The translations under genes and the position numbers were made by a program. The notes under the pieces are model-generated. The model was not told the DNA's origin, made no database searches, and was given only the letters and a program-made list of their open reading frames with translations. A DNA stretch of 64,000 nt from the NCBI GenBank assembly GCA_044338255.1, contig JBIILZ010000002.1, positions 23,043 through 87,042 of the forward strand. The letters run 5' to 3'. Below, piece by piece: positions 6,601 through 38,867 of the stretch. Positions within the stretch are counted from its first letter, which is position 1; each line of letters opens with the position of its first letter. This DNA comes from Planctomycetota bacterium (GTDB taxonomy: Bacteria; Planctomycetota; UBA11346).

Positions 6601-8208
6601 ATCGGCGCCCTGCGCTATAGCGTGCCCGGGGTGACCCTGGTCAGTCCGCCACCGCACCACGACATCTATTCGATCGAAGATCTCGCGCAGCTGATCTTCG
6701 ACCTCAAGAACTGTAATCCGTCGGCCAACATCAGCGTCAAGCTGGTGAGCGAAGTCGGCGTCGGCACGGTTGCCGCCGGCGTCGCCAAGGCCCACGCCGA
6801 CATCGTCACCATCTCCGGCTGCGAAGGCGGCACCGGCGCCTCGCCGATCAGCTCGATCAAGCACGCTGGCGTGCCCTGGGAACTGGGCGTCGCCGAGACC
6901 CACCAGACCCTGGTGATGAACGACCTGCGTTCACGCATCAAGGTCCAGACCGACGGACTCCTCCGTACAGGCCGGGATGTGATCATCGCGGCCATGCTCG
7001 GGGCCGAGGAATTCGGCTTCGCCACCGTCGCCCTGGTGACGGTCGGCTGCATCATGATGCGCAAGTGCCACCTCGACACCTGCCCGGTGGGCGTCGCGAC
7101 GCAGAACGAGACCTTGCGCAAGAAGTTCAACGGCAAGCCCGAGCACGTCGTCAACTTCTTCACCTTCCTCGCCGAGGAGGTGCGCGAGCACCTCGCGGCC
7201 CTGGGCGTGAAGTCGATCGACGAGCTGGTGGGCCGCACCGACCTCCTGGAGATGAACCACGCCATCACCCACTGGAAGTCGCAGGGCCTGGATTATTCCA
7301 AGCTTCTTGCCAAGCCCCAGGTGGGTCCGGAAGTCGGCACCCGCTGCCTGATCAAGCAGGACCATGGCGTCGAGCAGGTGCTTGACCGCGAGCTGATCGT
7401 CGCCTGCGCGCCAGCCCTTGAGCGCAAGGAGAAGGTCACCCTCAACCTGCAGCTCAAGAACAGCAACCGTACCGCTTGCACCATGCTTTCGGGCGAGGTC
7501 GCTAAGCGCCACGGCCGTGAGGGCCTGCCTCCGAACACCATCACCCTCAACTTCCGCGGCACCTCCGGCCAGAGCTTCGGCGCCTTCCTCTCTCCAGGCA
7601 TGTCGCTGACCCTCATCGGCGATGGCAACGACTACGTCGGCAAGGGCATGGCTGGCGGGCGCATCGTCATCCGCCCAGCCGAAAACGTCACCTATGTGTG
7701 GAATGAGAACGCCATCGTCGGCAACACCGTGATGTACGGCGCCACCGGCGGCGAGGCCTACTTCGGCGGTACCGCCGGCGAACGCTTCTGCGTGCGCAAC
7801 TCCGGCGCCAACGCGGTCATCGAAGGCGTCGGCGACCACGGCTGCGAATACATGACCGGCGGCCACGCGGTGATCATCGGCCGCACCGGCCGCAACTTCG
7901 CTGCTGGCATGTCGGGCGGCATCGCCTGGGTACTCGATGAAGACCACAACTTCAACAAGCGCTGCAACCACGGCATGGTCGCACTCGAACAGGTCGCCAG
8001 CGACACCGATGGCGTCGAGGTCCTCAAGCAGCTGCTCGAGAACCACGTGCTGTTCACCGGTTCGCCGAAAGCCAAGGCGTTGTTGGCGGATTGGCCCGCC
8101 TGCCTCAAGAAGTTCGTGAAGGTCTTCCCCCACGAATTCCGCCGCGTCCTCACTGAACGGGCCAACAAGCTCGGGCAGTCGGGCGTGCGTGAGGCCGTCA
8201 AGGTCTAA
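3619..8208 (+). CDS. gltB: glutamate synthase large subunit
   Basis: 1529 aa. N-terminal Ntn amidotransferase start (EHDACGVGFLANISG), FMN/Fe-S central domain and C-terminal GXGXG beta-helix region (GDHGCEYMTGG). Confidence 0.97.
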   Translation: MTMNMPTTNHGLPPAQGMYDPANEHDACGVGFLANISGIKSHGIIKRGISVLCNLHHRGAVGADPLDGDGAGIMIQIPDGLYRAVAPFSLPATGEYGTGLVFLSKGSDKESSSCIAEVEKAIVHHGLKLIGWRDVPTDNRTLGRVAKGSEPLVKQVFVGRGAVSLAQFELKLLLARKRAENAIRAGKLNGGALFYINSLSASTIIYKGMFLAHTLNEYFLDLNDPRAESAIALVHQRYSTNTFPTWDLAHPFRFVAHNGEINTLRGNVNRMKAREALFAHKDIGEAISDLKPVILEGGSDTACFDNALEFLVRTGRSLPHALSMMMPAAWSTKASLSRPLKGFFEYHATMMEPWDGPANMVACDGTQIVAALDRNGLRPARYQITTDNEILYASEMGTLEFPQEKVVRKGRLAPGKMILIDTARGVFLEDDGIKGELAKQHDYAGWIEQFKITLDQLPIPAQPAMPRHEKLRQQQQAFGYTMEDLKVVIAPMALDGQEPVGSMGDDTPVSILSNVPQPFYNYFKQLFAQVTNPPVDPIREEVVMSLTQYVGQARNILEPSSEHCRMLEIDQPILRRQELEALRQADIPGFRGTTLSTLFSVKGGPEELEKRLEQLFAEAEKAVDNGYTVLVLSDRGVDEERAPIPALLAVAAVHHFLIRAGKRSQCSLIVESGEPRETHHFALLVGYGATAINPYLVVDSIHDLIDAGILPKLDGNKAVDDEHDAAYYYHKNYIKAVGKGLLKVFSKMGISTLQSYCSAQIFEAVGLNSAFIAKYFTGTSTRIEGAGAVEIAIESLKRHRVAFAPLIDKNRDLERGGYYHWRRDGEFHLMNPEVIALLQHSVRAGDRATFRRYTKQVDDQSKNLCTLRGLFNLKLAPTAIPLDQVESVESLVSRFCTGAMSLGSIATEAHETLAIAMNRIGGRSNTGEGGEDPRRFLPDANGDLRRSKIKQIASGRFGVTPHYLVNADELQIKMAQGAKPGEGGQLPGHKVTDYIGALRYSVPGVTLVSPPPHHDIYSIEDLAQLIFDLKNCNPSANISVKLVSEVGVGTVAAGVAKAHADIVTISGCEGGTGASPISSIKHAGVPWELGVAETHQTLVMNDLRSRIKVQTDGLLRTGRDVIIAAMLGAEEFGFATVALVTVGCIMMRKCHLDTCPVGVATQNETLRKKFNGKPEHVVNFFTFLAEEVREHLAALGVKSIDELVGRTDLLEMNHAITHWKSQGLDYSKLLAKPQVGPEVGTRCLIKQDHGVEQVLDRELIVACAPALERKEKVTLNLQLKNSNRTACTMLSGEVAKRHGREGLPPNTITLNFRGTSGQSFGAFLSPGMSLTLIGDGNDYVGKGMAGGRIVIRPAENVTYVWNENAIVGNTVMYGATGGEAYFGGTAGERFCVRNSGANAVIEGVGDHGCEYMTGGHAVIIGRTGRNFAAGMSGGIAWVLDEDHNFNKRCNHGMVALEQVASDTDGVEVLKQLLENHVLFTGSPKAKALLADWPACLKKFVKVFPHEFRRVLTERANKLGQSGVREAVKV

Positions 8209-8250
8209 GCCACATACAATTACCCTGAATTAACCGTAAAAGAGCATACC

Positions 8251-9732
<1,482 letters not shown>

Positions 9733-17067: not shown

Positions 17068-18036
17068 ATGCTCATCCGCCCACGCCGTAATCGTGTATCC
17101 GCTGGCGTGCGTGCGCTGGTCCGCGAAACCGTGCTGACTCCGGCCGACCTGGTCCTGCCGCTGTTCGTGCACCATGAGTCCGCGGATGCACCGATCGCGG
17201 CGATGCCCGGCTGTGCCCGGCAATCGATCGCCAACACCGTCGCCACCGCCCGCGTCACCTACGAACTGGGCATCCCGGCGGTGGCGCTGTTTCCGGCCTT
17301 GACCACGGCGGAGAAATCGCCGGCGGCGCATGAGAGCATCAATCCCGAAGGTCTCCTACCGCGCTGCGTGCGGGCCTTGAAAGCCGCCCTGCCGGACCTG
17401 GTGGTAATCACCGACGTGGCCCTCGATCCCTATTCCACCGATGGCCACGATGGCCTGGTGCGCGATGGCAAGATCGTCAACGACGAGAGCCTGCCGATCC
17501 TGGCGGCAATGGCTGTCGCCCAGGCCCGCGCCGGGGCCGATCTGGTGGCGCCCAGCGACATGATGGATGGACGCGTCCAGGCGATCCGCGAAGCCTTGGA
17601 TGCGGCGGGCTTCATCGAGGTCGGGATCCTCAGTTATTGCGTCAAATACGCTTCGGCTTTCTACGGCCCCTTCCGCGAGGCCCTCGATTCGGCGCCGCGT
17701 TTCGGCGACAAGAAGACCTATCAGATGGATCCAGGGAATGTCCGTGAAATCCTCCGTGAAGTCGCCCTCGACGAGGCCGAAGGCGCCGACTTCGTGATGG
17801 TCAAGCCCGGGCTGCCCTACCTTGATGTGGTGCGCGCCGTGCGCCAAGCCACCGCCCTGCCGGTGGCGGCGTATCAGGTCAGTGGCGAATTCGCGATGCT
17901 CAAGGCCGCCGCCGAAAAGGGCTGGATCGATTACGACCGCTGTCTGCTCGAAAGCCTGCTGGCCTTCAAGCGCGCCGGCTGCGATTTCATCTTCACCTAT
18001 GGGGCGATCGACGCCGCGCGCCTGTTGCGACGCTGA
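17068..18036 (+). CDS. hemB: porphobilinogen synthase (delta-aminolevulinic acid dehydratase)
   Basis: MLIRPRRNRVSAGVRALVRETVL..., PSDMMDGRV, YQVSGEFAM, and active-site Lys context VMVKPG. Confidence 0.95.
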   Translation: MLIRPRRNRVSAGVRALVRETVLTPADLVLPLFVHHESADAPIAAMPGCARQSIANTVATARVTYELGIPAVALFPALTTAEKSPAAHESINPEGLLPRCVRALKAALPDLVVITDVALDPYSTDGHDGLVRDGKIVNDESLPILAAMAVAQARAGADLVAPSDMMDGRVQAIREALDAAGFIEVGILSYCVKYASAFYGPFREALDSAPRFGDKKTYQMDPGNVREILREVALDEAEGADFVMVKPGLPYLDVVRAVRQATALPVAAYQVSGEFAMLKAAAEKGWIDYDRCLLESLLAFKRAGCDFIFTYGAIDAARLLRR

Positions 18037-18063: not shown

Positions 18064-18116
18064 CTAGGAGTCTGTCGGAGATAGGCTTGGTCGGCTGACT
18101 CCGACAGGCTCCTAGG
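18064..18116. repeat. 53-nt hairpin element, copy 1 (ctaggagYctgtcgg...ccgacaggSYcctagg family)
   Basis: Left arm ctaggagtctgtcggag, loop ataggcttggtcggctga, right arm ctccgacaggctcctagg. Lies between the hemB stop and the TamB-like start. A second copy with a similar loop is at 38814..38867. Confidence 0.8.
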
Positions 18117-18152: not shown

Positions 18153-21100
18153 ATGCCGCCGACCCCACCCCCAGCAGCGATAACGCGCCGACCTCGCCGT
18201 TGGCGGCGGTGGCTGCTGGTCACCGCGCTCATCGTCAGCACCCTGGGTGCCGCCGCCTGGGTGGTGCGTGAACGCTGGCTGGGGCCGTTGATCGCCCGCG
18301 CCGTGGTCCAAACGCTGCACGAAGAAATCGGCGGCCGCTGGTCCGTAGCGCGCGTCTCTGGGACCCTCATCAGCAACCTCCGCATCGAGGGCCTGACCGC
18401 CCTGGAGACCGCACCCGACAGCGTCCTCACCCAGGCCCACGTCGAGAGCATCACCTTCACCTATCGCTGGTGGCGCTTCTTCGGCACCGAGAAGCTGACC
18501 GCGATCGACGGCGTGGTCCTCGAGGACGTGGACCTGACCATCGACAGCGCAGCCACTGCCTCATCGGCGACCACTGCCGCCTCGGCGACCACTGCCGCCT
18601 CGGCGACCACCGCCGCATCGACGACCACCGCCACCCGCACATTTCCAACAATTCCCTGGGCGATGCCGATCAGCGCCACGGGCACAGTGACGGTGCTGAC
18701 TCCAGCAGGCACCCTCGAAGCCAACGAGTTGCACCTCGAAGGGCGGCTGGATCACCTGCAACTCGACGCGCATCTGCGCTTGGCGGGGCACCAGCTGGGA
18801 AAGCTGCGCCTTGCCGCCGAGCACCACGGCCCGCTACCGACCGCCGGTTGGAACCTCGACAGCCATGTGCAGGAAGCAGATGAGCCGCCGCTGCACCTGG
18901 CCGTCGCCGTGAGCGCCGCCACACCGCAGCTCAGCGCCACGCTCACCGCCGGTGAGGGCACCCGACTGACCTGCGCCACGGCTGCGCCAGGCGTGGTCTT
19001 CTCAGCCACCGGCGACGCCACCCGGCTGGCACCGGCACTGCGTCGCGTGAGCGCCGCCATCGGCGTGAGCTTGCCGAATAACGGCCGCGTCAGCCTCGAC
19101 GGTACGCGTGCCGATGACGGCACGGTGAGCATCGCCCACGGCCGCGTGGATCATCCTGCGATCACCGCCAATATCACCGCCGGCCGCTGGCACCCCGACA
19201 CCGGGCTCCTCAGCCTTGCTGACGGCGATGCCCAGATCCGACCCACATATCTGAAGCCGTCGCTCGCTCGCTATCTTGACGAAAAGGCCCTGCTCACGCT
19301 CCATGCCCAGGCCCGCGAGGGTCGTCTCGAGGTCCAGCTCACCAGCGCCGATCTGCCACTGCCGCTGAGCGCCGAAGCCCAGCTCGATGGTCACCTGGCC
19401 AGCGCGGCCTGGCGCAGCGCTGCGCTGCAGGTCCAGCTCACGGCGAGCGCTGACGGCGACAACCACTATCGCGCACAGCTCGGCCTCAATGGCAGCTGGG
19501 CGGCGCTACATGGCAACCTCAAGATTCAGGCCGCCCGGGTGATCGCGGGCACCTGGCAGGCCAACGACCTCGCCGCCCAGGCCCAGCTGACCATGACCGC
19601 CGCCGGTCAGCAACCCGCCCGCCTCGAAGGCCAATGGACGCTTACGGCGGCGGCCATCCGCGCCTCCCCGACCAAGGCCGACTGGAGTCTCGCCAGCAGC
19701 GGGCAGTTGCACGCCGACGAGCACGGCTTGCAGCTCGTGACCGAGATCACGACGCCGCTAGTGGCGCAGGCAACGCTCACTTCCGCGACGCCGTTCAGCG
19801 CCGATGGCGCCTGGCTGACGGGCTTCACCAGCACGCCGCTGGGCGGACAGTGGCAGCTCAGCGATCTCGATCTCGCGCAGGTCGCATCGCTGCTCCCCGA
19901 GCGCGTGCACCTCGATGGCCATGCCCGCGGTCATGGCGAACTCCAGGATCTCTGGCAACCGCAGAACTGGTCAGCTGTCCTCCACGCCGAGCACGTCAAC
20001 CTCGGCGGTCTGCCGCCGCTGCCGCCACTGCTCGACATCGAGGCGGCGATCACCGCCAGTCCGGCGGGGATCCTGATCAACACCCTCAGCGCCCGTGCCG
20101 GTGGCGGACAGGTGCAAGTCAGCGGCAGCCTGCCCCTGCCGCAGCAGGACGGTCCGCTGGCCTTGAACGTGGTCTGCAAGGATGCGTTGATCTTCCAACG
20201 TCCGGACGTGCGTCTGCGCGCCGATGCCGAGGTCCAGCTCACTGGCACCTGGGCGGCACCGGCCTTGAAGGGCGACGTCCATCTCACCGACCTGGTCGCG
20301 ACCACGCCGGTGTCGTGGTTCGGCGGCCGCGATCTGCCGGTAGTCGCTTCACCCTTCGAAGGCCTGAGCAGCTTGCCGCCGCCGTGGAACCTCATGCAGC
20401 TCGAGCTGCACCTCACCGGTGGCCAGGATCCCCGCAAGGCCCTCGAAATCCGCAACAATGTCGTGGTCGCCCGCCTGGCGATCGACGTCACCGTCGCCGG
20501 CAAGGTCCAACTGCCGGTCCCCAGCGGAGAGATCCTCTGCCGCAAGGGGCGCCTGGTCCTGCCGTTCTCGGCGTATGCCATCGACAGCGCGGCGTTGCGC
20601 TTCAATCCCGCCGATCCCTATGATCCGCTGATCGAGGCCAGCGCCTCGACGCAGGTCCAGGGCTATCTGATCACCGCCCAGATCAGCGGCACGCTGCGCC
20701 ATCCGCACGTCGATGTCAGCTCCTCGCCGCCGTTGGCGCCGGAAGATGCCCTGGTCCTCGCGAGCACCGGTCGGCTGCCGGCGGAGATGCGCCGCGATGG
20801 CACCTCGGCCTCGGCGATCAGCGTCGCCCTGCCCTTCGTCGGCCGGGAACTGCAGCGCTGGGTGCTCGGTGATGGCTTCGCCGATGATGGCGACAGCATC
20901 CTCGATCGCTTCGTCATCCGCTACGACGAAGAGCGCAGCCAACGCGGACTGCCCTCGGTGCGCGTGGAATATCAGCTCTACGATCCCTGGTATCTCTATG
21001 GTGAACGCGATCTCTACGAAGCCTACAACCTCGGCCTGATGTGGCGGTGGATCTTCGCCGATCCGGCGCGCGCCAAATCCACCAGGCCCGTCGAGGACGA

Positions 21101-23099
21101 ACGCGATGACGAGCCGATTGCCGATTGGCGCGTGGTCCCGGCTGCCGGCGTCGATCATCTCCCGGTCTCGGCGGGCAAGCTCCTCGCCACCGTCCCCGCC
21201 CGTCAACGCCGGGGCAGCGACGCCAATCAACCGGCGCAGATCGCCAGCGCCGCCCAACGCATGGTCGATCATCTGCAAGAGGCCGGCTATCCCGAGGCTC
21301 GGGTGCAACCGACGATCAGCACGATCCATCCCGAGCCCATCGAGTTCGCGGTCACCCCCGGCAATTCATGGACGATCACCGCGAGCCGCGTGCAGGGCGC
21401 GCCCACCGACCTGCTCGCGACCTTGGATGCGATCGTCGCCAAAGGTCTGCCGCGCGGCGCGGCGCCGACGCCGAGCGCCGAGATCGCCACCCGGGCGGCA
21501 TTACGCCAGGCCATGCGCAATGCCGGGTATGCCCTCGCGGAAGTGCGCAGCCAGATCGTGCGCGATCCGCAGGCAGAGGCCAACGCCCTGGTCACCATCA
21601 CCGTCGAACCCGGCCTGCATTACCGCTTCGCCACGCAAGCACCGACGATCACCGGCGAGCTCGACGACGCCATACGTTCGCGCCTGACCGAGACCTACCT
21701 AGCGGTGCAGGGGAAGGATTGGACCCGCCGCCGGGTCATCAATCTGCGCGCCCAATTGCTGCAGATCCTACACCTCGAAGGTTACACCTTCGCCCAGGTG
21801 GTGCTCACCGACGACGAACCGGCCCTGCTGCCCAACGTGCTCTGTAGCGTGCAGATCACTCCCGGAGCGCCGGTGATCGTCCAGGCCATCAACCTCAGTG
21901 GGTTCCATTACACCTCTCACGAGTATGTCCGCCATCGTCTGCAGCTGCCACTCGGCACGCCCCTGCGCGATGGCGAACCCGAGGCCGCACTCGGGCGCCT
22001 GCGCCGCAGTGGTGTCGCCCGCAGCGTGAAATCCACCGTCACTCCCGTGGGCCTGGCCCTGCCCGGCATGCAACCGGAGCTACAGCCCGCAGAGCTGAAC
22101 ATCATCGCCGAGGAAGCCCCGCCGCGCAGCGTCGAATTGGCGGCGGGCTACGGCAGCTACGAAGGCGCGCGCGGCAGCGCCCTCTACCGCGACAGCAACC
22201 TCTTCGGCTGGGGCCGCACCTGGGAGCTCGGCGGCGATCTCAGCCAGCGCAGCCAGGGCGCGCACACGCGCATCATCGATCATGATCTGCTCGGCATTCA
22301 ACGCATCCTCAGCGTCACCCTCAGCGGTGGCTGGCGCCAGGAGCCATCATTCGATCGTACCTCGTATGCCAGCGAGTTCAGCCTGCGCGCACCGCTCACC
22401 GATTGGCTCGATCTGCGTACCACCTACACCCTCGAAGCCGAGCGCGCCAGCGAACGTGCCGCCGTCGTCGACGACTCGCAGGATCAAGGCTTCGTGCTTA
22501 ATGGCGTGCTCAACACCAGTCTGCTGTGGGACGGGCGCGATGATCGGCAGCTGCCCACGCGGGGCGGCCTTGCCGAGGTCGGCTTCGGCATCTCCGACCC
22601 TGCGCTGGGCTCACAGATTTCGTACATCGAATGGTCGACGCGCCTGGGCTGGGTACTGCCGGTGGTCGATGAGCGCCTGATCCTGGCGACGCAGGTCGCG
22701 GGCATCGTACGCCGCATCACCGATGGCACCGACAACCTGCCCATCCAATATCGCCTGTTCCTCGGTGGCTCGACGACCGTGCGCTCCTTCGGCCTCAACG
22801 AGCTCAGTCCGGTGAGCGCCAATGGCGACGCCCTCGGCGGCCTCACCGCCGGCTATGCCAACGTCGAGTTACGCGCCAAGGTCTCAGGCAAATTCCATGT
22901 CGCGGCTTTCTATGATGTCGGCAAGGTCTCCGAACGCAGCTGGACCCTCGATGGAGCCCTCGGCCAAGCCCTCGGCGGTGGCCTGCGCTACCACCTGCCG
23001 ATCGGCCCCCTGCGCGTGGACGCGGCCTACAACCCCGGCGAACGCTGGGCCGCCGACCAGAGCTATGCCATCGAAGGAGCGATCGGATTCACCTTTTGA
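18153..23099 (+). CDS. TamB-like (AsmA-like/DUF490) protein fused to POTRA + Omp85 (TamA/BamA-like) beta-barrel
   Basis: Single 1648-aa ORF. N-terminal Arg-rich signal-anchor (RRWRRWLLVTALIVSTLGAAAWVV). DUF490-type C-terminal TamB block (LIEASASTQVQGYLITAQISGTLRHPHVDVSSSPPL...RVEYQLYDPWYLYGERDLYEAYNLGLMWRWIF). After an acidic linker come POTRA-like repeats and an Omp85 barrel (AAGYGSYEGARGSALYRDSNLFGWG...LFLGGSTTVRSFG...GGLRYHLPIGPLRVDAAYNP...AIGFTF). Confidence 0.8.
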   Translation: MPPTPPPAAITRRPRRWRRWLLVTALIVSTLGAAAWVVRERWLGPLIARAVVQTLHEEIGGRWSVARVSGTLISNLRIEGLTALETAPDSVLTQAHVESITFTYRWWRFFGTEKLTAIDGVVLEDVDLTIDSAATASSATTAASATTAASATTAASTTTATRTFPTIPWAMPISATGTVTVLTPAGTLEANELHLEGRLDHLQLDAHLRLAGHQLGKLRLAAEHHGPLPTAGWNLDSHVQEADEPPLHLAVAVSAATPQLSATLTAGEGTRLTCATAAPGVVFSATGDATRLAPALRRVSAAIGVSLPNNGRVSLDGTRADDGTVSIAHGRVDHPAITANITAGRWHPDTGLLSLADGDAQIRPTYLKPSLARYLDEKALLTLHAQAREGRLEVQLTSADLPLPLSAEAQLDGHLASAAWRSAALQVQLTASADGDNHYRAQLGLNGSWAALHGNLKIQAARVIAGTWQANDLAAQAQLTMTAAGQQPARLEGQWTLTAAAIRASPTKADWSLASSGQLHADEHGLQLVTEITTPLVAQATLTSATPFSADGAWLTGFTSTPLGGQWQLSDLDLAQVASLLPERVHLDGHARGHGELQDLWQPQNWSAVLHAEHVNLGGLPPLPPLLDIEAAITASPAGILINTLSARAGGGQVQVSGSLPLPQQDGPLALNVVCKDALIFQRPDVRLRADAEVQLTGTWAAPALKGDVHLTDLVATTPVSWFGGRDLPVVASPFEGLSSLPPPWNLMQLELHLTGGQDPRKALEIRNNVVVARLAIDVTVAGKVQLPVPSGEILCRKGRLVLPFSAYAIDSAALRFNPADPYDPLIEASASTQVQGYLITAQISGTLRHPHVDVSSSPPLAPEDALVLASTGRLPAEMRRDGTSASAISVALPFVGRELQRWVLGDGFADDGDSILDRFVIRYDEERSQRGLPSVRVEYQLYDPWYLYGERDLYEAYNLGLMWRWIFADPARAKSTRPVEDERDDEPIADWRVVPAAGVDHLPVSAGKLLATVPARQRRGSDANQPAQIASAAQRMVDHLQEAGYPEARVQPTISTIHPEPIEFAVTPGNSWTITASRVQGAPTDLLATLDAIVAKGLPRGAAPTPSAEIATRAALRQAMRNAGYALAEVRSQIVRDPQAEANALVTITVEPGLHYRFATQAPTITGELDDAIRSRLTETYLAVQGKDWTRRRVINLRAQLLQILHLEGYTFAQVVLTDDEPALLPNVLCSVQITPGAPVIVQAINLSGFHYTSHEYVRHRLQLPLGTPLRDGEPEAALGRLRRSGVARSVKSTVTPVGLALPGMQPELQPAELNIIAEEAPPRSVELAAGYGSYEGARGSALYRDSNLFGWGRTWELGGDLSQRSQGAHTRIIDHDLLGIQRILSVTLSGGWRQEPSFDRTSYASEFSLRAPLTDWLDLRTTYTLEAERASERAAVVDDSQDQGFVLNGVLNTSLLWDGRDDRQLPTRGGLAEVGFGISDPALGSQISYIEWSTRLGWVLPVVDERLILATQVAGIVRRITDGTDNLPIQYRLFLGGSTTVRSFGLNELSPVSANGDALGGLTAGYANVELRAKVSGKFHVAAFYDVGKVSERSWTLDGALGQALGGGLRYHLPIGPLRVDAAYNPGERWAADQSYAIEGAIGFTF
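18554..18625 (+). repeat. 18-nt in-frame tandem repeat x4 (encodes ATASSATTAASATTAASATTAAS)
   Basis: Units cactgcc(t/g)c(a/c)tcggcgac read directly. Located inside the N-terminal part of the TamB-like ORF. Confidence 0.9.
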
Positions 23100-37949: not shown

Positions 37950-38815
37950 AGCGAGATTGCGCCAGGCCATGCGCAATCCCGGGTATGCCCTGGCGGCAGT
38001 GCGCAGCGGGATCGTGCGCGATCCACAGGCAGAGATCCACGTCCTGGTCACCGTCACCGTCGACCCCGGCCTGCGTTAGGGCTTCGCCACGCAAGCACCG
38101 ACGATCACCGGCGAGCTCGATTCTGACATAGTATGTCCGCCATCGTCTGCAGCTGCCACTCGGCACGCCCCTGCGCGATGGCGAACCCGAGGCCGCACTT
38201 GGGCGCCTGCGCCGCAGTGATGTCGCCCGCAGCGTGAAATCCACCGTCGCTCCCGTGGGCCTCGCCCTGCCCGGCATGCAACCGGAGCTACAGCCCGCAG
38301 AGCTGAACATCATCGCTGAGGAAGCCCCGCTGCGCAGCGTCGAATTGGCGGCGGGCTACGGCAGCTACGAAGACGAGCGCGGCAGCGCCCTCCACCGCGA
38401 CAGCAACCTCTTCGGCTGGGGCCGCACCTGGGAACTCGGCGGCAATCTCAGCCAGCGCAGCCAGGGCACGCACACGCGCATCATCGACCATGATCTGCTC
38501 GGCATTCAACGCATCTTCAGCGTCATCCTCTGCGGTGGCTGGCACCAGGAACCCTTGTTCGATCGCACCTCGTATGCCAGCGAGTTCAGCCTGCGCGCAC
38601 CGCTCACCGATTGGCTCGATCTGCGTACCACCTACACCCTCGAAGCCGAGCGCGCCAGCGAACGTGCCGCCGTCTTCGACGACTCGCAGGATCAAGGCTT
38701 CGTGCTTAATGGCGTGCTCAACACCAGTCTGCTGTGGGACGGGCGCGATGATCGGCAGCTGCCCACGCGGGGCGGCCTTGCCGACGTCGGCTTTGGTATC
38801 TCCGACCCTGCGCTA
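37950..38815 (+). pseudogene. two joined fragments of the TamB/Omp85 fusion gene (POTRA/barrel region), decayed
   Basis: About 37960..38120 matches 21504..21663, with an in-frame TAG where the parent has TAC (ctgcgttagggc versus ctgcattaccgc). 38130..38815 matches 21922..22606, so roughly 258 nt of the parent is missing between the two pieces. The ORF 38234..38833 differs from the parent at 14 of about 193 residues by my count. Confidence 0.9.
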
Positions 38816-38867
38816 GGAGCCTGTCGGGAATAGATTCGGTCGGCCTATCTCCGACAGGCCCCTAGGA
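38814..38867. repeat. 54-nt hairpin element, copy 2 (same family as 18064..18116)
   Basis: ctaggagcctgtcggg aatagattcggtcggcctat ctccgacaggcccctagg. It starts exactly where homology of the pseudogene to its parent gene ends. Confidence 0.8.

Follow-up and report, generated by a model that had tools for sequence, protein, structure and literature searches.

A gene on the forward strand (18153..23099) of a 64,000-nt window of contig JBIILZ010000002.1, from a freshwater planctomycete, encoded a TamB protein and an Omp85 outer-membrane barrel in one chain. Judged by sequence comparison, it is a true covalent fusion of TamB to Omp85, and the join is conserved across a clade that numbers at least 19 sequences. 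The window, that is, the whole stretch of DNA analysed, belongs to a metagenome-assembled genome (MAG) of 219 contigs and 89% completeness, referred to here as G000. An initial annotation of the window had described a single uninterrupted open reading frame (ORF), and the ORF listing and the translation confirmed it, with 1648 codons plus stop, an ATG start, and no internal stop. The strings quoted in that annotation were all present, RVEYQLYDPWYLYGERDLYEAYNLGLMWRWIF at residues 937-968, ADPARAKSTRPVEDERDDEP at residues 969-988, and AIGFTF at the C-terminus. Its central claim, that an inner-membrane anchor and an outer-membrane barrel are covalently joined in one polypeptide, was supported by the same set of at least 19 sequences. 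In public data, the fused proteins were named “hypothetical protein”, “TamB domain-containing protein” or “BamA”.

The protein started with an Arg-rich n-region (RRPRRWRRW) and a hydrophobic signal anchor (residues 11-38, 18183..18266, forward strand, as are all features of this gene). A Kyte-Doolittle (KD) scan revealed a sole transmembrane-like segment at residues 20-38 (KD19 2.07), right after RRPRRWRRW. AlphaFold2 (AF2) predicted a helix at residues 15-58, and the N-terminus was collinear with the standalone TamB of G002, a genome with the same genus label (36% identity over residues 10-70); the anchor proposed initially was therefore borne out. The AF2 model of residues 1-700 (predicted local distance difference test, pLDDT, 87.4) consisted of this helix followed by about 45 strands, which ran almost continuously through a long all-beta region (residues 62-858, 18336..20726) to form the predicted TamB-type groove, or “beta-taco”. 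A Foldseek search with residues 1-700 found no solved counterpart (best TM-score 0.2, matches meaningless), as would be expected if, to our knowledge, no structure has yet resolved the N-terminal half of TamB. The Pfam TamB family PF04357 matched residues 645-887 (20085..20813; 77.2 bits against a cut-off of 22.4, E 1.9e-21) and was recovered also by a six-frame genome search. The whole TamB part was collinear end to end with the 960-aa standalone TamB, with 28% identity over residues 568-965 (E 9e-36).

The remainder of the chain was modelled as residues 640-1648 with a 53-sequence alignment (pLDDT 85.6, predicted TM-score 0.73). The TamB C-terminal domain (residues 863-968, 20739..21056) was predicted to contain two helices (863-872 and 876-905, the second with low confidence) and then four strands within residues 920-967, a layout that matched the C-terminal domain of E. 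coli TamB as described in PMC12800296. The last TamB strand, YNLGLMWRWI (958-967), was beta-signal-like and predicted at a pLDDT of 87-93, and residues E956, A957, N959, G961, W964, R965, and W966 were invariant across seven fused homologues. An acidic, Pro-containing linker of about 23 residues (969-991, 21057..21125; pLDDT 61-66) without a hydrophobic stretch connected this strand to four POTRA-like beta-alpha-alpha-beta-beta units (21126..22118; residues ~992-1068, 1074-1152, 1158-1236, and 1241-1321 in AF2). Pfam recognized POTRA (PF07244) at residues 1026-1070 and, below threshold, POTRA_2 at residues 1177-1221 (20.6 bits against a cut-off of 24), and phmmer matched the POTRA region to BamA of the PDB at 2.5e-7. 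The chain ended with an Omp85 barrel of 16 strands in AF2 (residues 1323-1648, 22119..23096, end AIGFTF), which matched PF01103 at residues 1349-1648 (125.7 bits against a cut-off of 24, 3.8e-36) and thus belonged to the Omp85 superfamily. Foldseek of the C-terminal two-thirds matched chains of both BamA and TamA (1e-35 to 1e-28); the crystal structure of TamA is 4c00. Pfam, AF2, and Foldseek therefore agreed with the initial description of a TamB region with a DUF490 terminus, followed by POTRA-like repeats and a complete Omp85 barrel.

The join between the two halves was examined for signs of two genes. No hydrophobic segment was found in residues 940-1100 (KD maximum 1.05), and each of the four in-frame ATG or GTG codons near the junction was followed by polar sequence and no leader, so that the reported absence of a stop, a leader or a usable start at this position held. 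A missing base could have merged adjacent tamB and omp85 genes into one frame, and the origin of the window in a MAG of 219 contigs would allow for such an error; in split relatives the two genes overlap by 4 nt or are parted by one stop codon, so one indel could mimic a fusion. Against this, the same open frame was present in at least 19 fused sequences from independent assemblies and sources, spanning four genera and identities down to 31%, and the junction retained no signal peptide, whereas a simple frameshift would have left one. A sister species in an independently assembled Lake Mendota Planctomycetota MAG (L001; 93% aa identity) could be aligned over 1066 codons across the junction without a gap, an indel or a stop. 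An assembly artefact is thus highly improbable and, as far as sequence comparison goes, is excluded for practical purposes and effectively refuted.

The same continuity was seen in the wider protein data. A word-indexed protein search recovered six more proteins of this three-domain Pfam architecture (P0002-P0007, 1607-1736 aa; 41-96% identity), and in their alignment the junction was continuous and partly invariant. When residues 640-1648 were searched with HMMER against 1.84 billion representatives, about nine fused clusters were among the best 150; the remainder of the best 150 were Omp85 proteins of about 680 aa or TamB proteins that stopped exactly at query position 329, which corresponds to residue 968. 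The ratios of nonsynonymous to synonymous substitution (dN/dS) relative to L001 were 0.15 for the TamB part, 0.26 for the POTRA region, and 0.11 for the barrel, and by this measure both halves are under purifying selection.

The fused Omp85 half resembled BamA in several respects, which raised the question of whether it is the general BamA of the cell and couples all outer-membrane protein insertion to TamB. The NCBIfam BamA model TIGR03303 was the best equivalog-type match (151.9 bits, spanning residues 1114-1627), and BamA chains stood at the top of the Foldseek results. This score nevertheless lay well under the cut-off of 297, and phmmer placed the barrel nearest to TamA (5e-11). Moreover, G000 encoded a separate canonical BamA on another contig (G000:C137; at least 807 aa, PF01103 at 1.2e-44), and BamA orthologues were found in 45 of 48 genomes of the family. 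This reading has almost no chance of being correct, and a role of the fusion as the sole or general BamA of G000 was ruled out by the second Omp85. The other curated models were also far from their cut-offs: TamA NF047950 scored 87.5 bits against 625, with four POTRA-like units in place of three; proteobacterial TamB NF047952 scored 20.6 bits against 825; and TamL NF052279 scored 34 bits against 400, with no leader at the junction. TAM (translocation and assembly module) is defined by two separate, non-covalently bound polypeptides, and a single ORF, conserved as such, was found here. By these profile scores, the protein belongs to the TamB and Omp85 superfamilies and to none of the curated orthologue groups.

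To place the fusion among its relatives, the GTDB family of G000 (48 species genomes) was searched in six frames. A single frame across both halves was present in nine of these genomes, in four genera (G000, G004, and G005; G011 and G056; G014, G057, and G058; G016), with identity down to 31%. Full fused ORFs in the other genera were 1623, 1410, and 2264 aa long, all with TamB, POTRA, and Omp85 domains, and for the distantly related fusions P0033-P0035 Pfam confirmed all three domains. In most other family genomes the end of tamB was followed by the start of omp85 on the same strand. Across the phylum, 301 evenly sampled genomes showed the same adjacency in at least nine further families, and among them only G000 and G016 gave a match spanning the junction. 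Throughout Planctomycetota, tamB followed by omp85 is how the split genes are natively arranged, and the earlier statement that the fusion reverses the usual order does not apply to this phylum, as the family and phylum genomes both showed.

The split genes lay very close together. In G002, tamB (960 aa) and omp85 (689 aa) overlapped by 4 nt (GTGA), and the Omp85 protein started with VKRKSLMLVAGVLLLLVGC and carried the lipobox LLLVGC. In G021, the ORFs were 1390 aa and 706 aa, with a 4-nt overlap if the first in-frame start was used, and the Omp85 protein had a Sec-type leader. In G026, from another family (L028, 2617..6705 and 6706..8781), tamB and omp85 were in the same frame, parted by one TGA with an ATG directly behind it, and the same arrangement was observed at G116:C15:3381-3992. 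It is possible that this single-TGA arrangement represents an intermediate toward fusion or a candidate for read-through. The fused gene and the split pair were never found together in one of the 48 family genomes, and each genome contained at most one PF04357 gene, fused or split. A comparison of relatives had been suggested initially as a check on the fusion; neither state turned out to be uniform, and both occurred within one family without ever sharing a genome. TamB was absent from 17 of the 48 genomes (PF04357, E <= 1e-5). In six of these, all at least 90% complete (G003, G006, G008, G018, G024, and G047), BamA was present and no gene of the TamB family was detected. The gene neighbourhoods of the fused and split loci had nothing in common, so synteny gave no clue to function.

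Maximum-likelihood trees were consistent with one origin of the fusion in this lineage. In the tree of the Omp85 part, rooted on the genome’s own BamA, all 19 fused sequences of the lineage formed one clade (Shimodaira-Hasegawa-like approximate likelihood ratio test, SH-aLRT, 98) nested within the split proteins. The tree of the TamB part recovered the same fused clade (SH-aLRT 98) with the same internal groups, again nested among split forms, and the split neighbours of the clade in the trees came from the same family and phylum of Planctomycetota. One fused clade with the same internal groups in both trees implied a single fusion event, with the two halves co-evolving since. On this phylogenetic evidence, the fusion arose once in the lineage from adjacent split tamB and omp85 genes, with loss of the partner’s signal peptide. 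A second fused lineage was located far off on a long branch (P0120 and P0139 in the Omp85-part tree, P0120 and P0185 in the TamB-part tree), and the many split proteins between it and this clade pointed to an independent fusion event. P0120 (1904 aa), P0185 (1900 aa), and P0139 (1106 aa) are metagenomic TamB-POTRA-Omp85 fusions with no taxon assigned.

The distribution of the two forms did not follow the relatedness of the genomes, for which BamA identity to G000 was used as a rough yardstick. BamA identity was 90-91% for G004 and G005, 63-65% for G001 and G003, 45-59% for most split-bearing genera, and only 38-44% for the other fused genera. G001 and G002, with the genus label of G000, had the split type at about 31-33% identity, and distant genera had the fused type at 31-38%. 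This incongruence suggests either that the split pair was replaced horizontally by the single-gene form or that an ancient paralogy was followed by reciprocal loss.

The linker occupied the position at which the standalone partners have a signal peptide or lipobox. In the alignment, the mature N-terminus of the standalone partners coincided with the first POTRA strand, V-x-I-x-x corresponding to WRVVP (992-996) in the fusion. A hydrophobic leader ending in a lipobox-like Cys was read by eye from the N-termini of about 16 of 18 full-length standalone partners; a scripted lipobox pattern counted 14 of 20, two of the 20 being truncated gene calls. Because of this Cys after the leader, most standalone Omp85 partners look like TamL-type lipoproteins, a form reported so far from Bacteroidota and Chlorobi (PMC4494059, PMC12045153). 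This majority was seen among the Planctomycetota partners P0031, P0043-P0066, and L028:6706-8778. Split relatives would appear to have a TamL-like lipoprotein anchor that fixes their POTRA arm, by its N-terminus, to the outer membrane, and in the fused clade this lipid anchor would have been exchanged for a covalent tether to TamB. The translations of all fused forms showed a linker of about 21-30 residues with a conserved Trp at its end. A POTRA arm pinned by so few residues to the last TamB strand makes a short, length-conserved linker geometrically sensible, and by analogy with E. coli, where that strand lies in the outer membrane, the linker may act as a geometric tether.

The main rival explanation is that the fusion is a precursor, in which a periplasmic protease cuts the acidic linker after export and frees separate TamB and Omp85 proteins; the fusion would then serve only to have the two parts made 1:1 and to export a barrel without a signal peptide of its own. 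The linker was indeed the segment with the lowest confidence and the lowest conservation, its sequence differed between genera, and its dN/dS relative to L001 was 0.45, a value based on very few sites and too few changes to judge. No conserved cleavage motif was found across the fused clade, however, since only the terminal Trp was kept, and the length of the linker was held over deep divergence, a better fit to a geometric tether than to a spacer that can be discarded. No linked protease gene was found either, the neighbourhoods not being conserved. Cleavage of this kind appears improbable.

The fusion protein probably works as a single-chain TAM that forms a permanent 1:1 bridge from the inner to the outer membrane, with its TamB strand paired in cis with strand 1 of its own barrel, as suggested by the AF2 models and by analogy with E. 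coli. The uncleaved N-terminal anchor would lead the chain to Sec and remain in the inner membrane, while all downstream parts would be exported. Insertion of the C-terminal barrel would then be the task of the separate BamA and would proceed through the terminal ...GFTF strand, in the way autotransporter barrels are inserted. Autotransporters have this layout, with an N-terminal export signal ahead of a C-terminal barrel. The “topological puzzle” that the initial annotation saw in the insertion of the barrel is dissolved by this arrangement and a separate BamA, since the N-terminal anchor can export the chain via Sec and the BamA on G000:C137 can insert the barrel. The C-terminal TamB strands, which end in the internal beta-signal YNLGLMWRWIF, would slot in cis into the barrel's lateral seam, where the last of them would lie paired with strand 1 of the barrel (residues ~1325-1334), a pairing like that of the TamA-TamB hybrid barrel of E. 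coli. From the seam, the linker and the POTRA arm would loop through the periplasm and return to the barrel. The most likely job of such a machine would be that of TamB, to carry phospholipids along the groove to the outer membrane, and it may possibly aid the assembly of some outer-membrane proteins. A structural model of the junction had been named initially as a further check; it returned the linker and the last TamB strand at the confidence values given above, together with the 16-strand barrel, and from these values, the AF2 secondary structure, and the E. coli structures we infer the contact at the seam and the hybrid barrel in cis.

Three points weighed against this single-chain TAM. 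The equivalog scores were far under their cut-offs, so that function could be transferred only at the level of the superfamily. The near-complete family genomes without TamB implied that the system is dispensable there. In addition, the TamB beta-signal is internal in the fusion, with 680 residues after the conserved YNLGLMWRWIF, and C-terminal in E. coli; this objection was tempered by the standalone TamBs of relatives, which carry 1-5 additional residues past the beta-signal. No match above cut-off to AsmA (PF05170) or YhdP (PF13116) was found in G000, which is 89% complete, and the fusion may therefore be the only bridge-like lipid carrier of this genome. That the fusion is essential as a sole bridge-like lipid transporter was a proposal weakened by the family genomes of at least 90% completeness without any TamB. 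A second weak “TamB” match, on G000:C87 (E 0.007), was rejected as a large exported protein that is not AsmA-like.

Alternatively, the chain might stay intact with the Omp85 half serving only as an outer-membrane anchor, to which TamB is docked with its strands in the periplasm or on the membrane surface, so that neither a hybrid barrel nor an insertase role would exist. A non-hybrid state was seen in part of the E. coli particles (PMC12800296), and the internal position of the beta-signal could hinder pairing at the seam. On the other hand, the beta-signal-like strand and the residues surrounding it were invariant in fused homologues though no longer C-terminal, the strand was predicted by AF2 with high confidence, and a stable hybrid barrel was reported as the functional state in vivo (bioRxiv 10.64898/2026.03.22.713439). 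Docking alone seems unlikely, and pairing in cis remains the preferred reading.

One known system close to the fusion is the TAM of E. coli. Cryogenic electron microscopy of E. coli TamAB revealed a hybrid barrel in which the last TamB strand is hydrogen-bonded to TamA beta-1 (PMC12800296; bioRxiv 10.64898/2026.03.22.713439). Both systems have a TamB N-terminal anchor, a beta-taco (predicted in the fusion), a DUF490 domain of two helices and terminal strands, and a beta-signal-like last strand, together with an Omp85 partner that has POTRA domains and a 16-strand barrel. They differ in that E. coli has two polypeptides, whereas here there is one in the order TamB then Omp85; E. coli TamA has three POTRA domains in contrast to the four POTRA-like units here; and E. 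coli TamB is 1259 aa long compared with 968 aa for the TamB part here, in which the beta-signal is internal. In the TamL-TamB system of Bacteroidota (PMC12045153; Heinz et al. 2015, PMC4494059), the POTRA arm has its N-terminus fixed at the outer membrane, as would be the case here, and the closest standalone partners of the fusion likewise appear to be lipoproteins with a lipobox. The tether in the fused clade is a peptide to TamB instead of a lipid, and the phylum is another one.

The gene order tamB then Omp85 is shared with the TamB-BamA pair of Borrelia (Heinz et al. 2015, PMC4494059), in which the conserved C-terminal domain of TamB is reported to interact with the POTRA domains of BamA (PMC5582053, PMC11361582). 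In Borrelia, however, two separate proteins are involved, the partner of TamB being the sole BamA, of the canonical five-POTRA type (Heinz et al. 2015, PMC4494059), whereas here it is a dedicated second Omp85, covalently joined. In Veillonella parvula, a long MlaD with an outer-membrane beta-barrel at its C-terminus has also been proposed to be a single-chain lipid bridge from the inner to the outer membrane, but its fold (an MCE domain and a helical tube) is unrelated and the direction proposed is retrograde (PMC10665443). This barrel-bearing form of MlaD was reported to be absent from the Planctomycetota-Verrucomicrobiota-Chlamydiota (PVC) phyla (PMC10665443).

No description of a natural TamB-Omp85 fusion was found in the searchable literature, most subscription journals lying outside its coverage, and such fusions were unmentioned in Heinz 2015 (PMC4494059), in two TamAB structure-era papers, and in the TamL paper (PMC12045153). 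The fusion can be regarded as the known TAM machine in an altered, single-chain form. What it contributes is its independent origin, seen in two congruent trees, the occurrence of fused and split forms side by side in one family, the linker in place of a lipoprotein leader, and the hint of horizontal replacement. The findings also extend TamL-like lipoprotein partners and the tamB-omp85 order to Planctomycetota, and they suggest an evolutionary route in which a lipid tether is exchanged for a peptide tether. Two TAM studies of 2026 disagree on the hybrid barrel, which is the stable functional state in one (bioRxiv 10.64898/2026.03.22.713439) and one of two interconverting states in the other (PMC12800296). 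The retention of the fusion through deep divergence argues that the TamB and Omp85 parts need not separate and that a free C-terminus is not required for the terminal strand of TamB to work. Fused and split forms in one family, and even under one genus label, would serve as matched natural comparators, and the fusion offers a template for an engineered single-chain TAM in E. coli for structural work.

A bolder proposal is put forward tentatively, as one that we would sooner doubt than assume. The hybrid barrel might be intramolecular and permanently closed, with the internal beta-signal paired with Omp85 strand 1 and the linker and four POTRA units forming a closed loop; the peptide tether would have evolved in direct exchange for the TamL-type lipid anchor, and the whole would be a self-contained, horizontally transferable gene for an envelope bridge that displaced the split pair in this genus. 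If the barrel were closed in this manner, a TAM would need neither dissociation of its subunits nor a free TamB C-terminus.

Within the TamB part, the in-frame 18-nt Ala/Thr/Ser repeat reported initially as four copies, and as a likely linker of variable length, was recovered at 18553..18632 (residues ~134-160) by Tandem Repeats Finder, with a period of 18, 4.4 copies, and 91% matches. It formed the only disordered loop of the N-terminal half (pLDDT 42-45 at residues 141-160). The closest homologue, P0002 (96-97% identical), was 12 residues, or two units, shorter at the repeat, in agreement with a variable length, and more distant homologues had no repeat.

The fusion gene lies downstream of hemB (17068..18036, ALAD), with a spacer of 116 nt to its ATG. 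Neither a sigma-70-like promoter nor a terminator-like site on its own strand was found for the fusion gene. Between hemB and the fusion gene, a 17-bp inverted repeat (18064-18115) with 16 of 17 positions complementary, an 18-nt loop, and no U-tract was observed, which may be involved in ending hemB transcription or in regulating the fusion gene. A decayed partial copy of the POTRA and early-barrel region was located further downstream in the window (37963-38815, forward strand), with in-frame TAG stops. Its first block corresponded to 21495-21673 of the fusion gene (~90% identity) and its second to 21922-22608 (~96%), joined across a 248-nt deletion. The copy was flanked by a 477-aa ORF of no assigned function and a TIG/GDSL-lipase gene, and a 199-aa ORF inside it (38234..38833) appeared as a gene call in public data (P0040).

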